Source of the DNA: Caldilineaceae bacterium
GTDB lineage: Bacteria > Chloroflexota > Anaerolineae > Caldilineales > Caldilineaceae
Reading direction: 5' to 3'
Assembly: GCA_965221345.1 (NCBI GenBank)
Contig: CBDCSD010000001.1
Coordinates: 1,062,455 to 1,126,454, forward strand
Length of the DNA stretch: 64,000 nt
Below, piece by piece: positions 56,991 to 62,717 of this stretch (its first letter is position 1; every line of letters begins with the position of its first letter). The notes beneath the pieces are model-generated. The model searched no databases and was not told the origin of the DNA. It was given only the letters and a program-made list of their open reading frames with translations. The translations under genes were made by a program, and so were the position numbers.

Positions 56991-57530
56991 AAGACCCCCT
57001 ACCGGCACTTGTCTGAATCGACCATTTGTGCTAAGGTCAGCGCCTGCTGGGCTAGACGGGAACTGTCTTACAACCGCAAGCAGAGCTGCAGCCCACAAGG
57101 ACGAAAACGAAATGTCATTCCGTCACCCGTTCCCGGCGATCCGACCGGCCATTGCCATCACCGAAAGCGACAACAAAATCACCCAACTTGACCTGCCCGA
57201 GCTGCAATGGTGGCCGATTATTCCGACGCTTGGCGACCCTATTCCTGAACCCAAGGGCGAGCGCCCGATGCTGGCATGAGCAGGTGAGAAGAGGCAAGCA
57301 TGGCAGACGGATAGTGGGGGGCGAAGCAGGCGCTGTTGGGGTGGGGCGGTGTGTGAAGAATGAGCGGGGACGGACGGGGGCACGCAAACTTGACAATTTT
57401 AGGAATTCAAGGCAAATTGTCATAATATGAATACAACATTTAATCGAAATACACGCCTTCATTCTTGACTTGTGTATATGGTCCTGTCGTTGTAGATTAT
57501 GACATCTTGAGAAAGGAAGGAAGCAAGGTT

Positions 57531-58067
57531 ATGTCGACAGAAAATCTACAAATTCGTGTCGTTAAGAGTCGCCCCGACATTTTCGAGCAAGTCATTCTAT
57601 TTGTGTTGGACAAAGTTGGGGCTAAACCAAATGTTGGAGAAACGGTTCTCCATAAACTCTTCTATTTTATCGACTTCGACTATTACGAGAAATATGAAGA
57701 GACTCTGATGGGAGAAACGTATGTTAAGAGTAATTATGGGCCAACATCCGTAAGTCTGGTTCGGAAATTGAACAGCATGGAAGAGAAAGGAGAAATCGAA
57801 AAAACGGAGAGAGAATATCATAATTATGTTCAGAGGAAATACCTTATAGCTGGGCACCTGAAGCCACACACTCTGTCAGCCCGCGATGTCGAGCATATTG
57901 AAGGTGTACTGGATCGGCTCTCTGACATGAGCGCTACAGAGATATCTGAGTACTCCCACAATGATACTCCCTGGAAATGCGCTGCGTTCGACCAACCAAT
58001 TCCCTATGAGAGTGTCTTTTACCGCGACGACGTATACTCCGTTAAGGAGTATGACGATGAAATTTGA
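57531..58067 (+). CDS. Panacea (DUF4065) domain protein, SocA-like antitoxin candidate
   Basis: 178 aa. VLHKLFYFIDFDYYEKYEETLMGETYVKSNYGPTSVSL and the C-terminal LSARDVEHIEGVLDRLSDMSATEISEYSHNDTPW fit the DUF4065 pattern. AAGGAAGGAAG upstream. Low GC. Confidence 0.7.
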   Translation: MSTENLQIRVVKSRPDIFEQVILFVLDKVGAKPNVGETVLHKLFYFIDFDYYEKYEETLMGETYVKSNYGPTSVSLVRKLNSMEEKGEIEKTEREYHNYVQRKYLIAGHLKPHTLSARDVEHIEGVLDRLSDMSATEISEYSHNDTPWKCAAFDQPIPYESVFYRDDVYSVKEYDDEI

Positions 58068-58208
58068 AAGGGATCTACATAGCGAATCCAATCGATATTT
58101 CTTGCTTCTACGATTCCAAGGTGCAGCCCGTGTGAAAAGTCTTGGGATCAGATTGAACTATTAAGTAACTATGTCCATGTCTTACTCTTCTACCATTAAG
58201 GGATATTT

Positions 58209-58562
58209 GTGGACAAACTTCAATGCAATGAACTACGTCAATTCACAAGGGATTTCAAGAGACTATCAAAGAAATATCGTTCACTTCCCGATGATCTTGC
58301 TCAATTCATTAAGATTATTTCTGCTGAACCTCCTAAGCCATCTCAACGTGTTAGTATCATTACACAACATGAATCCTTGTGGATCATAAAAGCCCGTTTG
58401 GCATGTACGTATTTGAAGAATAGTGACCTTCGCATCATCTTTGCATATTTTACTCAAGAGCGCAGGGTAGATTTCATTGAACTCTATTTCAAGGGAGACA
58501 AAGACCGCGAAGACAGAGCACGAATCGAAAGGTATTTGCAAGAGCGGCAAGATAACGTTTAG
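58209..58562 (+). CDS. RelE/ParE-superfamily toxin candidate
   Basis: 117 aa, GTG start. FTRDFKRLSKKYRSLPDDLAQFI.. then LRIIFAYFTQERRVDFIELYFKGDKDREDRARIERYL matches the F.K.FKKL.KKYRSL / RVIY...L..IY.K pattern of this toxin family. Confidence 0.65.
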   Translation: MDKLQCNELRQFTRDFKRLSKKYRSLPDDLAQFIKIISAEPPKPSQRVSIITQHESLWIIKARLACTYLKNSDLRIIFAYFTQERRVDFIELYFKGDKDREDRARIERYLQERQDNV

Positions 58563-58599
58563 ACTAAGCACCGCAGTCAAGATATCAACAGACCAGACG

Positions 58600-58633
58600 C
58601 GTCCCGATGGAAACATCGGGACGTTATTCGTTT
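58600..58633 (+). terminator. Rho-independent-type terminator after the toxin gene
   Basis: CGTCCCGATG - GAAA - CATCGGGACG (perfect 10-bp stem, GNRA-like loop) followed by TTATTCGTTT. Confidence 0.65.
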
Positions 58634-58661
58634 CAGCTAACTGATTGCGCCCAGACCAATA

Positions 58662-61600
58662 ATGCCCACCCTCACCCTCAAACCCACGCATAAGCCGGTC
58701 AAATCCTACTACGCCGCGCTCGACCGGTTCGCCCAACTCGGCGTTACGCATGAGAGCGCGGTGCGCGCCGCCTTCCAGACTCTGCTCGAACACTGTGCCC
58801 GCCAGTGTGGCTGGACGCTGGTGCCGGAACACGCCATCAGCCCGCAGCGCAACAAGCGCATTGTCGTCGACGGCGCGCTGATCGACGATTTCCGGCTGAC
58901 GCACGGCTACTGGGAGGCAAAGGACATCGACGACGACCTGCCCACCGAAGTCGAGCGCAAATTCGCGGCCGGCTACCCGCGCGACAACATCCTCTTCCAG
59001 ACGCCGCAGCGGGCGATGCTGTGGCAGAACGGGCGGTTGGCGCTGGACGCCGACCTGACGGACGCGGGGGAGCTGATCGAGACGTTGCAGATGTTCTTCG
59101 GCTACCGCCCGCAGGAGTACGCGGCGTGGGAGGAGGCGGTCGCCCAGTTCAAAGACAGGGTGGCCGACATCGGGAACGGCCTGGCAGAGCTGATCCGGAA
59201 GGAGCGGCAGAGCAACCGCCGCTTCACCGCCGCCTTCGCCGAGTTTCTGGACAAATGCCGCCAGTCGATCAACCCAAATCTGGCCGAGGCCGCGGTCGAG
59301 GAGATGCTGATCCAGCACCTGCTGACCGAGCGGCTCTTCCGCACTGTCTTCAACAACCCGGACTTCACCCGTCGCAACGTCATCGCCAATGAAATAGATA
59401 GCGTGATCAACGCGCTCACCTCGCACTCGTTCAGCCGCGACGAGTTCCTGAAGAGCCTGGACCCCTTCTACGCCGCCATCGAGCGCACGGCGGCGACGAT
59501 CAGCGATTTTTCGCAGAAGCAGCACTTTCTCAACACGGTCTACGAGCAGTTCTTCCAGGGCTATTCGGTCAAGGTGGCGGATACACACGGCATCGTCTAC
59601 ACGCCGCAGCCGATCGTCGATTTCATGGTGAAGAGCGTGGCCGCGATCCTGGAGCGGGAGTTTGGCCGTTCGCTGGCCGACGAGGGCGTTCACATCATCG
59701 ACCCGTTCGTCGGCACCGGCAACTTCATCGTGCGCATGATGCGCGAGATCCCGCGCACTGCGCTGGCGCGCAAATACGCCTCCGAGCTGCACTGCAACGA
59801 GGTGATGCTGCTGCCCTACTACATCGCCAGCATGAATATCGAGCACGAGTACTACGACGCCACCGGCAGGTACGAGCCGTTCGAGCGCATCTGCCTGGTG
59901 GACACGTTCGACCTGGCCGAGGACCGCCAGCTGCCGCTGTTCGCGCCGGAGAACACGCAGCGGGTAGAAAACCAGAAGCGGTTGCCGATGTACGTGGTGA
60001 TCGGCAATCCGCCCTACAACGTGGGGCAGGTGAACGAGAACGACAACAACAAGAACCGTAAGTACCCGACGATGGACAGGCGGGTTGCGGAGACGTATGC
60101 AAAAGCCTCTATGGCGACGAATAAGAATAAACTCTCCGATGCCTACGTAAAGTCAATTCGCTGGGCATCGGATCGGATAGGCAAAGAAGGAGTGGTTGCC
60201 TTCGTGACCAACAATGGGTTTCTCGATAGTATTTCGTTTGATGGGATGCGAAAATACCTCGCCGAGGGCTTCGATGCGATCTACATCTTAGATTTGGGCG
60301 GGAACGTGCGGAAGAATCCGAAGCTGTCAGGCACGACGCACAACGTTTTTGGCATTCAGGTCGGTGTCAGTATCAATTTCCTTATCAAGAAGAGCGGCAA
60401 GGCAGATACACAAACTGGAATGTTCTACGCACGTGTCGATCAGAACTGGCGTAAGGAAGAGAAGCACCGATTTCTCGACGCGAAAGAACAGTACGGCAAT
60501 ATCGACTGGAAGCCGATAACGCCGGATAAGCGGCACACTTGGCTTACCGAGGGACAGCACGCCGAATATGAAAGCTTTATCCCAATTGGAACTAGGGAAG
60601 CGAAGACTGGGAAAGGCGAGGCAATTGATGTGACATTTGAGATTTATAGTCTCGGTGTCAGTACGAACCGTGACGCTTGGGCTCGAAATTTCAATCGCAG
60701 CGCACTTACTGAGAATATGCGTCGGATGATCGATACTTATAACGGACAGGTGTTCAAGTGGGAGCGTCAGACGAGTCCTAGTACAACCGTTGACGACTAT
60801 GTGGTATACGATGACAAAGAGATCAGTTGGAGTAGGGACCTAAAAGCGAAGTTGAAGCGTGGCAGGTTCGCTGAATACGCTGAACACAAGGTCAGGGAAT
60901 CACTTTATCGACCGTTTACAAAGTCACACCTCTACTTTGACCGGGCGATGAACGATATGGTGTATGTCGTCCCGTCCATCTTCCCCTCAATGGATTCCGA
61001 AGAAGAAAATAGAGCTATTTGCATGACTGATAAGGGTTCTGAGAAGCCATTTATGACTTTGATGAGTTGCCAAATTGCTGATTTACATTTGGTGGGTGCA
61101 GGCTGCGGCTCCCAATGCTTCCCCTTCTACACCTACGACGAGGACGGCAGCAATCGCCGCGAAAACATCACCGACTGGGCGCTGGCCCGATTCCGCGCCC
61201 AGTACGGCGACGAGACGATCAGCAAGTGGGACATCTTCCACTACGTCTACGGCCTGCTGCACCATCCCGTTTACCGTGAACGTTACCAGGCCAACTTGAA
61301 GCGCGAGTTGCCGCGCATCCCCTTCGCCCCCGACTTTCGCGCCTTCGCTGCGGCCGGCGCGCGCTTGGCGCAGATCCACGTCGGCTATGAGGAGCAGCCG
61401 CAATACCCGCTCCAACAGATCGAAACGCCGCAGATGGCACTCGACTGGCGCGTCGAGAAGATGCGCCTCTCCAAAGACAAAGCGCAGCTGCGCTACAACG
61501 GCTTCCTGACGCTGGACGGCATCCCCGCCGAAGCGTTCAACTACCGCCTGGGCAACCGCTCAGCGCTGGAGTGGGTGATCGACCAGTACCGCGTCAAGAC

Positions 61601-61778
61601 CGACAAACGCAGCGGCATCGTCAACGACCCCAACCGCGCCGACGAACCGGAGTACATTGTACGCCTGATCGGCAAGGTGATCAGCGTCAGCCTGGAGACG
61701 GTGGCGATTGTAGAGGGTTTGCCGGATTTGGGAATTGAGGACGCAAAAGAGGAGAAGCCCCCCGCCGTCCACGCATAA
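58662..61778 (+). CDS. Single-chain restriction-modification enzyme candidate (Type IIG / Type ISP-like: PD-(D/E)XK-like N-terminus + gamma-class N6-adenine methyltransferase + Type ISP-like C-terminal specificity domain; no helicase)
   Basis: 1038 aa. VVDGAL(x11)YWEAKD gives D70..E85-A-K87. Motif I is IIDPFVGTGNF (about 59699-59725) and motif IV is IGNPPYNV (NPPY at 60006-60017). The C-terminus LPRIPF..VGYEE..YNGFLTLDGIPAEAFNYRLGNRSALEWVIDQYRVKTDKRSGIVNDPN is typical of the Type ISP C-terminal domain. Confidence 0.75.
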   Translation: MPTLTLKPTHKPVKSYYAALDRFAQLGVTHESAVRAAFQTLLEHCARQCGWTLVPEHAISPQRNKRIVVDGALIDDFRLTHGYWEAKDIDDDLPTEVERKFAAGYPRDNILFQTPQRAMLWQNGRLALDADLTDAGELIETLQMFFGYRPQEYAAWEEAVAQFKDRVADIGNGLAELIRKERQSNRRFTAAFAEFLDKCRQSINPNLAEAAVEEMLIQHLLTERLFRTVFNNPDFTRRNVIANEIDSVINALTSHSFSRDEFLKSLDPFYAAIERTAATISDFSQKQHFLNTVYEQFFQGYSVKVADTHGIVYTPQPIVDFMVKSVAAILEREFGRSLADEGVHIIDPFVGTGNFIVRMMREIPRTALARKYASELHCNEVMLLPYYIASMNIEHEYYDATGRYEPFERICLVDTFDLAEDRQLPLFAPENTQRVENQKRLPMYVVIGNPPYNVGQVNENDNNKNRKYPTMDRRVAETYAKASMATNKNKLSDAYVKSIRWASDRIGKEGVVAFVTNNGFLDSISFDGMRKYLAEGFDAIYILDLGGNVRKNPKLSGTTHNVFGIQVGVSINFLIKKSGKADTQTGMFYARVDQNWRKEEKHRFLDAKEQYGNIDWKPITPDKRHTWLTEGQHAEYESFIPIGTREAKTGKGEAIDVTFEIYSLGVSTNRDAWARNFNRSALTENMRRMIDTYNGQVFKWERQTSPSTTVDDYVVYDDKEISWSRDLKAKLKRGRFAEYAEHKVRESLYRPFTKSHLYFDRAMNDMVYVVPSIFPSMDSEEENRAICMTDKGSEKPFMTLMSCQIADLHLVGAGCGSQCFPFYTYDEDGSNRRENITDWALARFRAQYGDETISKWDIFHYVYGLLHHPVYRERYQANLKRELPRIPFAPDFRAFAAAGARLAQIHVGYEEQPQYPLQQIETPQMALDWRVEKMRLSKDKAQLRYNGFLTLDGIPAEAFNYRLGNRSALEWVIDQYRVKTDKRSGIVNDPNRADEPEYIVRLIGKVISVSLETVAIVEGLPDLGIEDAKEEKPPAVHA

Positions 61779-61793
61779 AGGAGAACAACACGA

Positions 61794-62717
61794 ATGAAAC
61801 ACGACGCCAGCAAACATCTCGTCTACCTCAGCGGCGAGATGCTGCCGCCGGATCAGGCCAGGATATCCGTTTTCGACACGGCCGTAACCCTGGGCGATAC
61901 CGTTACCGAGTCGACCCGCACTTTCGGCCACAAACCCTTCAAGCTGGAGCGGCACATCGACCGCCTCTACAAATCGCTCAAGGTCAGCCGCATCAATCCG
62001 GGGCTGTCACCGGCGGAGATGACCGCCATCACTCTCGAAGTCCTGGAGACCAACCTGCCCCACGTGCCGCCACAGGAGGATGTCTGGATCGTGCACAACA
62101 TCTCGCGCGGCATGGGCGCGGCCGCGGCCGACCCCACCCTGCAACGCTCCCCTGCCACCATCATCATCAACACCGCGCCCATGATTCTGAAAGACTGGGC
62201 TGGCTTCTACACCGCCGGCTGTCACGCTGTGACGCCCTTCAGCCGCGCAATCCCCACGCAGTCGCTCGACGCGCGCATCAAGAATCGCAGCCGCCTCGCC
62301 TATACCCTGGCCGAAGCCGAGGTCAAACTGGTCGACCCGCAGGCGCAGAGCATTATTCTGGATACCGATGGCAACGTAACCGAAAACAAGGGCGGCAACT
62401 TCTTCATCTGGGCTGATGGTGTTCTCAAGACGCCCCACGCTCGCGGCGCACTCGCCGGCATCTCCCGCGAGACCGCTCTCGAACTGGCCTGCGAACTGGA
62501 CATTCCCACGCAAATTACCGACTTCCAGCCCTACGACATCTACACAGCCGACGAGGCCTTTTTCACCAGTACGCCCTACTGCATTATGCCGGCCACCAAG
62601 TTCAACGGCCTGCCGGTAGGCGAAGGCGCGGTCGGTCCCATGACCATGCGTCTGCTGCAGGCCTGGAGCGACCTGGTGGGCCTCGATATCGTGGCTCAGG
62701 CCCAAAGTCATTTGTGA
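61794..62717 (+). CDS. Class IV aminotransferase (branched-chain / D-amino-acid aminotransferase family)
   Basis: 307 aa. VFDTAVTLGDTVTESTRTF, LERHIDRLYKS and GGNFFIWADGVLKTP..ALAGISRET. AAAGGAG upstream, 16 nt after the preceding stop. Confidence 0.8.
   Translation: MKHDASKHLVYLSGEMLPPDQARISVFDTAVTLGDTVTESTRTFGHKPFKLERHIDRLYKSLKVSRINPGLSPAEMTAITLEVLETNLPHVPPQEDVWIVHNISRGMGAAAADPTLQRSPATIIINTAPMILKDWAGFYTAGCHAVTPFSRAIPTQSLDARIKNRSRLAYTLAEAEVKLVDPQAQSIILDTDGNVTENKGGNFFIWADGVLKTPHARGALAGISRETALELACELDIPTQITDFQPYDIYTADEAFFTSTPYCIMPATKFNGLPVGEGAVGPMTMRLLQAWSDLVGLDIVAQAQSHL

Follow-up and report, generated by a model that had tools for sequence, protein, structure and literature searches.

A predicted stand-alone DrdV-type Type IIL restriction-modification enzyme with a mosaic specificity cassette in a Caldilineaceae genome

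Background

DrdV, the restriction-modification (RM) enzyme of Type IIL from Deinococcus wulumuqiensis 479, is a single chain of 1029 residues in which an N-terminal nuclease, a helical connector, a methyltransferase (MTase) and, at the C-terminus, a target recognition domain (TRD) follow one another (Shen et al., bioRxiv 10.1101/2021.01.06.425610). Its target is CATGNAC, in which one adenine on one strand is methylated, and it cuts 10/8 bp downstream, without adenosine triphosphate (ATP), once several target-bound molecules have assembled (bioRxiv 10.1101/2021.01.06.425610). In its active site, the scissile-phosphate metal is bound by D64 and E79, K81 is the canonical PD-ExK lysine, whose mutation abolishes catalysis, and K94 and E25 make up the rest; LlaGI and LlaBIII have an MTase and a TRD very like those of DrdV, which are described as sharing an origin with the Type ISP enzymes (bioRxiv 10.1101/2021.01.06.425610). 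Here, we present a computational analysis of a gene at positions 58662-61778 (+ strand) of a 64,000-nucleotide (nt) stretch of DNA from Caldilineaceae bacterium (assembly GCA_965221345.1, contig CBDCSD010000001.1, positions 1,062,455 to 1,126,454; hereafter the window). This gene very probably encodes an intact, stand-alone DrdV-type RM enzyme of Type IIL, which forms a subclass within Type IIG.

LlaGI and LlaBIII (PDB 5FFJ, 4XQK), both of Type ISP, share with the window protein a homologous coupler, gamma-class MTase and Type_ISP_C TRD (query residues 187-1026). They differ from it by a superfamily 2 (SF2) ATPase motor, lying between nuclease and coupler and missing here, and by a nuclease to which that of the window protein does not align by sequence, the alignments starting in the coupler at query residue 187. 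Type ISP enzymes act by translocation and collision, whereas the window protein would, by analogy with DrdV, be expected to oligomerise while bound to its sites. The MmeI family, prototype of Type IIL (PMC2731913, PMC4833311), follows the same logic, with nuclease, gamma-class MTase and TRD on one chain, modification of one strand, a need for several sites and specificity shifts through TRD changes, and the window protein would be expected to work in the MmeI manner. It is nevertheless a different sequence family, MmeI_Mtase (PF20473) matching only at E 0.029 with 14 bits against a 27-bit cutoff, and no MmeI structure appeared among the PDB sequence-search matches of the window protein.

Identity and architecture of the enzyme

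The open reading frame (ORF) begins with ATG and runs through 1038 codons with zero internal stops. In a sequence search of the PDB, residues 14-1021 aligned with residues 7-1025 of DrdV (chain 7lo5_A, also present as 7LVV, 1029 amino acids (aa)) at E 5.9e-216, and residues 13-1020 covered the 1024-position REase_MTase_IIG profile of PADLOC (PDLC03621) at E 2.9e-209. The entry 7LO5 is DrdV, since Foldseek gives its title as "cryoEM structure DrdV-DNA complex" and since K8, R12, D15, E41, R46, D224, E230, D231, K251 and R252, to which the DrdV paper refers, fall on the same letters in the aligned chain 7lo5_A. The features of the gene, all on the + strand, are listed below, with GC3 denoting the G+C content at third codon positions and dN/dS the ratio of nonsynonymous to synonymous substitution rates.

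58662-61778, +: complete gene of a predicted 1038-aa DrdV-type Type IIL RM enzyme (ORF, full-length DrdV match, PADLOC profile, dN/dS)
58662-59141, +: N-terminal PD-ExK endonuclease domain, aa 1-160 (match to the DrdV endonuclease domain, conservation, AlphaFold2 model, Foldseek)
58869-58871, 58914-58916 and 58920-58922, +: catalytic codons of D70, E85 and K87, respectively
59145-59516, +: helical connector (coupler) domain, aa 162-285 (Pfam ISP_coupler PF22240, model, DrdV alignment)
59517-60371, +: gamma-class N6-adenine MTase domain, aa 286-570 (Pfam N6_Mtase and Eco57I)
59700-59726, +: motif I, DPFVGTGNF, aa 347-355
60006-60017, +: motif IV, NPPY, aa 449-452
60372-61721, +: Type ISP-like TRD, aa 571-1020 (Pfam Type_ISP_C)
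60096-61100, +: low-GC3 mosaic cassette, codons 479-813, C-terminal part of the MTase and variable part of the TRD (two-breakpoint GC3 fit)

Pfam matched ISP_coupler (PF22240) at aa 162-282 (E 5.8e-19), N6_Mtase at aa 286-521 (E 2e-12), with Eco57I also matched in the MTase domain, and Type_ISP_C at aa 659-1002 (E 1e-107), and the strength of these profile matches lies far outside chance. The initial annotation, made from the letters alone, had claimed both MTase motifs, which are present, and a C-terminal block of the Type ISP specificity type, to which the Type_ISP_C match corresponds. The connector is all-helical in the AlphaFold2 model and aligns with that of DrdV, the MTase domain is alignable with those of DrdV, LlaGI and LlaBIII, and for the TRD there are matches to its counterparts in DrdV (E 3e-78), LlaGI and LlaBIII. 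A Pfam scan of the 1038-aa protein found no ATPase or helicase domain, and a scan of the neighbours found no separate methylase or specificity gene beside it, both as first proposed. In the 4-kb flanks of 80 related loci, no partner gene was conserved, and the commonest flanking gene family, a housekeeping one, occurred at 9/81 loci; hence the enzyme stands alone.

Compared with DrdV, the window protein is of similar length (1038 versus 1029 aa) and has the same domain order over a full-length alignment (E 6e-216), the same PD-ExK active-site residues, motif I, NPPY and Type ISP-like TRD, both proteins being products of a single gene without a helicase. It is nonetheless a distant relative, with 31-35% identity over aa 1-300 in a structure-based alignment, and the variable part of its TRD has indels and other residues. 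Compared with a homologue of 96% identity in a different assembly, the whole gene had a dN/dS of 0.12 and the nuclease domain one of 0.10, which indicates purifying selection on a gene encoding a working protein. Apart from the charged interface clusters of DrdV, every feature by which a sequence can be recognised as DrdV-type Type IIL is found in the 1038-aa protein. The self-contained combination of nuclease, N6-adenine methylase and Type ISP-like TRD that had been read from the letters agrees with the full-length DrdV match, and the architecture is no oddity: the family is known and has a solved structure, and the protein is one of its ordinary members.

The N-terminal nuclease domain

Searched alone, residues 1-203 matched 7lo5_A at E 3.3e-28, the matched residues 14-174 corresponding to the DrdV endonuclease domain. 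D70, E85 and K87, located in VVDGALIDDFRLTHGYWEAKD, had been proposed as a PD-(D/E)XK core, and they align exactly with the catalytic D64, E79 and K81 of DrdV, as do E31 and K100 with E25 and K94. All five are invariant in 47/47 close homologues. A search with residues 1-175 in 1.84 billion cluster representatives returned 1796 proteins at E <= 0.001, in which the domain is always N-terminal and complete proteins span ~1000-1095 aa; four of the five full-length representatives tested had the same Pfam architecture. Among the best 150 of these 1796, mutually <=50% identical, D70 was kept in 145/148, E85 in 145/149, K87 in 144/149, K100 in 137/146 and E31 in 136/140. One representative of 1029 aa (P0186) was considered as DrdV itself and ruled out, with 33% identity in the N-terminal domain.

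The AlphaFold2 model of residues 1-300, built from 41 sequences (mean predicted local distance difference test (pLDDT) 78.5), shows the order alpha-alpha-beta-beta-beta-alpha-beta-beta-beta-alpha followed by a helical bundle, with D70 on the second strand (67-74) and E85/K87 closing the third (77-86). Searched with Foldseek against the PDB, this model gave significant matches only to DrdV chains (E 1e-17 to 1e-6), with no significant match to any other PD-(D/E)XK nuclease, and it superposed on the isolated DrdV endonuclease chains 7lvv_C/D with TM-scores of 0.79-0.82 and a root-mean-square deviation of 2.0-2.2 Å. Helical matches of the PI3K p85 kind were rejected as spurious, drawn by the long connector helices. 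Sequence and predicted fold thus place the domain, which the initial annotation could not assign to any characterised family, in that of the DrdV endonuclease.

Proposed mechanism and alternative explanations

By homology to DrdV, one polypeptide would use its MTase and TRD as a clamp to bind an asymmetric target and would flip the target adenine into the NPPY pocket, where methylation dependent on S-adenosylmethionine, slow and on one strand only, would protect the host. Cleavage would be expected when several target-bound protomers meet on unmethylated foreign DNA. Connector contacts would join the bound protomers into dimers, and nuclease-nuclease contacts would bring in more of them, with each protomer lending its N-terminal PD-ExK nuclease (D70/E85/K87 and a divalent metal) in trans. 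Two PD-ExK sites would then cleave the two strands downstream of the target, at a set distance from it and with neither ATP nor helicase.

Several observations weigh against this assignment. Model confidence is low at residues 56-78, D70 included (pLDDT <50 at 56-65 and 69-78). Residues forming the DrdV interfaces are replaced, K8/R12/D15/E41/R46 by S15/A19/R22/R47/T52 and D224/E230/D231/K251/R252/K259 by N231/R237/R238/S258/R259/D267, including charge reversals at the dimer and tetramer interfaces (E230/D231 to R237/R238, K259 to D267, E41 to R47). Because these charged residues are replaced, the oligomeric geometry may depart from that of DrdV, although the reversals could be compensatory. 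In addition, a terminator-like hairpin lies ~28 nt upstream of the start codon, and no Shine-Dalgarno (SD)-like motif precedes the ATG. A gene dead for these two reasons was considered and rejected on account of the dN/dS of 0.12 and of the 49/68 paralogues that also miss an SD-like motif, a habit of the family therefore rather than a lesion.

The unconserved interface residues and the missing signals for strong expression would also suit an orphan or regulatory MTase, whose nuclease domain is kept but inactive and which only methylates. The initial annotation had held that an N-terminus without a nuclease fold and with unconserved D/E/K residues would point to such an enzyme; sequence and predicted-structure comparison of residues 1-300 found the DrdV endonuclease fold, and the residues are kept in 94-98% of the 150 representatives. 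With all five active-site residues intact and conserved family-wide, a nuclease domain under purifying selection and a predicted fold matching the active DrdV domain, we consider this explanation unlikely. Still less probable is a Type ISP enzyme that has lost its helicase, either served by a translocase in trans or decaying. The closeness of connector, MTase and TRD to LlaGI (E 7e-164) and LlaBIII (E 6e-150), the Pfam domain names, which refer to Type ISP, and the presence in the genus of a relative of Type ISP size (a 1610-aa open frame in genome G017) speak for it. However, the N-terminal nuclease is of the DrdV family, none of the best 150 of its 1796 representatives has Type ISP length, no gene for a helicase was found in the vicinity or as a conserved neighbour of relatives, the helicase-less form constitutes a huge conserved family under selection, and DrdV itself cuts without ATP.

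A secondary PADLOC match to mad2 (E 2e-26), together with a BREX structure paper that presents BrxX/PglX as a site-specific methyltransferase and cites DrdV, raised the further idea that the protein is the MTase part of a multi-gene defence system, PglX/BrxX-like as in BREX or mad2-like as in MADS. The REase_MTase_IIG profile nevertheless matches more strongly by ~180 orders of magnitude, PADLOC gave no PglX match at E up to 0.1, ABC-transporter genes, aminotransferases and a toxin-antitoxin (TA) pair make up the neighbourhood, with no brx, pgl or MADS genes within ~6 kb, and no partner is conserved across the 80 loci, all of which makes membership in such a system extremely improbable. The reading as a stand-alone DrdV-type enzyme is therefore the one retained below.

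A specificity cassette with its own history

Within the gene, a two-breakpoint fit separated codons 479-813 (nt 60096-61100), with a GC3 of 0.55, from the remainder at 0.89. Column entropy among close homologues was 1.1-1.6 bits at residues 571-810 versus 0.1-0.6 elsewhere, and the cassette segment was only 55-68% identical in homologues whose nuclease domain reached 95-96% and whose C-terminal TRD reached 90-95% identity. Synonymous divergence (dS) sharpened the picture: against the 96%-identical homologue, the cassette had a dS of 0.029 versus 0.18-0.33 in its flanks, and against the syntenic copy in genome G006 it had 2.5 versus 0.67-0.84. With these contrasts to its flanks, the cassette has an evolutionary history of its own.

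This region is also the one through which related enzymes read DNA. Among the recognition elements of LlaGI, loops I-III belong to the C-terminal MTase, whereas the TRD supplies loops IV-VI and a helix (PMC4872093), so that the recognition loops of Type ISP enzymes lie in the region found variable here. Transferred via the PDB alignment, with the chain offset checked by Y1021 as the NPPY tyrosine, the equivalents of loops II-VI would fall at about residues 484-811, inside the cassette. The pattern fits a DNA-reading module exchanged between copies. The divergence and separate origin of this segment, which takes in the variable part of the TRD, make the CATGNAC of DrdV an improbable target, and the enzyme probably has a new recognition specificity. 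In RM genes of Helicobacter pylori, domain movement of target-recognition segments has been described (PMC3983042), likewise as a specificity segment with its own history exchanged between conserved paralogous scaffolds. The present case differs by concerning a DrdV-type enzyme, by a pool apparently common to three phyla of uncultured microorganisms represented by metagenome-assembled genomes (MAGs), and by an exchange deduced from sequences.

Across the 80 related loci, scaffold identity followed taxonomy, with 84/82% in the N-/C-terminal parts for Caldilineaceae, 77/73% for Latescibacterota and 74/76% for Poribacteria, whereas cassette identity carried no taxonomic signal (59.5, 63.8 and 59.9%, respectively). 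The drop in GC3 was found in all groups; in Caldilineaceae, with 29 copies, it went from 0.82 to 0.58. Caldilineaceae, Poribacteria and Latescibacterota are typical sponge symbionts. We tentatively propose, with slightly less than even confidence, that these co-resident and probably sponge-associated lineages draw on a cross-phylum pool of DrdV-type enzymes that includes this gene, swapping cassettes between lineage-specific scaffolds and thereby sharing a community-wide library of restriction specificities. We are led to this idea because the scaffold but not the cassette follows taxonomy, because cassette GC3 is low in 29/29 Caldilineaceae copies, and because two scaffolds separated by a dS of 0.2-0.3 carry one and the same cassette (dS 0.03). 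More interesting than the enzyme class itself are the mosaic nature of the cassette and the expansion of the family. Practical value is modest, Type IIL enzymes being useful as reagents and engineering scaffolds; a sharply bounded natural swap marks where the specificity module is exchangeable in this scaffold.

Distribution and copy number of the family

In a protein search, the best 120 of at least 8000 candidates were 77-96% identical to the window protein. A scan of a genome collection gave more than 582 relatives, the best 80 of which were all from MAGs of Caldilineaceae, Poribacteria and Latescibacterota (67-83% identity). The family was present in 17/19 genomes of the window's genus, with copy numbers ranging from 0 to at least 25, and absent from 12/12 genomes of other families in the class. 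The 5.1-Mb genome G006 held at least 25 copies (25 scored out of 44 candidates) and the 4.4-Mb genome G009 held 17, with 0-5 in sister genomes. Enrichment of RM and TA systems has been documented in sponge symbionts, including 5-6 Mb Caldilineaceae bins (PMC5649159), and the range of copy numbers within one genus, together with the spread over three phyla, extends this known RM enrichment. Our literature search found no paper joining sponges with Type IIL, Type IIG or MmeI enzymes, only the general RM/TA enrichment being documented.

The window's genome (G000) contains two intact copies and short fragments. The second intact paralogue (G000:C1:1451047-1454109; L002:1504-4572) encodes 1022 aa, is 67-68% identical and keeps the catalytic residues. 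Identity falls to 47% in its nuclease domain (dN/dS 0.67) and to 29% in its residues 781-815, near the equivalent of loop VI, and this paralogue probably has a different specificity. Fragments of the C-terminal 60-66 aa occur as two pairs ~1.5 kb apart (C1:24577-24774/C1:26068-26244 and C2:1694159-1694356/C2:1695649-1695825), and N-terminal pieces, one of them with a stop, lie at C1:332381-332681 and C2:1254659-1254796. We read all these short sequences as remnants or parts of repeated elements.

Elsewhere in the genus, the 1610-aa open frame of G017 (C388:6774-9443) matches residues 154-1022 at 38% identity and is probably a true Type ISP enzyme. On OY282381.1, family copies occur at the loci given in the following line.

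OY282381.1, family loci: L017, L029, L030, L038, L044, L047, L051, L056, L062, L074, L080

Several of these copies share 140-230 nt of upstream sequence at 92-99% identity, and repeat units of 100-230 nt follow downstream in both orientations, which suggests duplication as a compact cassette.

Genomic context in the window

Upstream of the RM gene lie genes for the binding protein and permease of an ABC transporter and for a DegT-type aminotransferase, along with small ORFs that have no annotation, a Panacea/SocA-domain gene and a 117-codon ORF. Downstream, a class IV aminotransferase gene (15 nt from the RM gene) is followed by a small-molecule methyltransferase gene. No tRNA genes were found in the 64-kb window. 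The features used to compare the surroundings are as follows.

58599-58624, +: terminator-like hairpin of 11 pairs with a T-rich tail, ~28 nt 5' of the RM start codon
56300-58661 and 61774-61794: variable-slot region, compared with loci L089, L091, L092 and L093

Homology with RM-less relatives stops near 57238 and restarts at 61774, these relatives holding an Opp/Dpp-type ABC operon in the interval. In G006, an RM copy occupies the same place, and homology begins at 58661, one base before the ATG. In the near-identical strain carrying the 96%-identical homologue, the RM gene also comes after this DegT gene, but what precedes it there is a HicB-like gene with an AAA_15/AAA_21 ATPase, and the Opp operon is kept. 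In the window, nothing but the TA pair and the RM gene separates the DegT-type from the class IV aminotransferase gene. Because its contents differ among the RM-less relatives, G006 and the near-identical strain, sequence comparison marks this interval as a variable accessory slot in the genus.

The low-GC gene pair (0.41-0.48) just 5' of the RM gene spans 57465-58562. It comprises the Panacea/SocA-domain gene (Pfam E 2e-19, likely ATG at 57531) and the 117-codon ORF at 58209-58562, for which Pfam gave no match, and this Panacea TA pair is not conserved beside the RM family at the 80 loci. The hairpin at 58599-58624 probably terminates the upstream small gene. Finally, an ORF of 521 aa on the - strand (58281-59846) runs antisense to the RM gene in its 5' half; since the sense-strand GC3 of the overlapped part is ~0.9, this ORF is most likely a compositional artefact.

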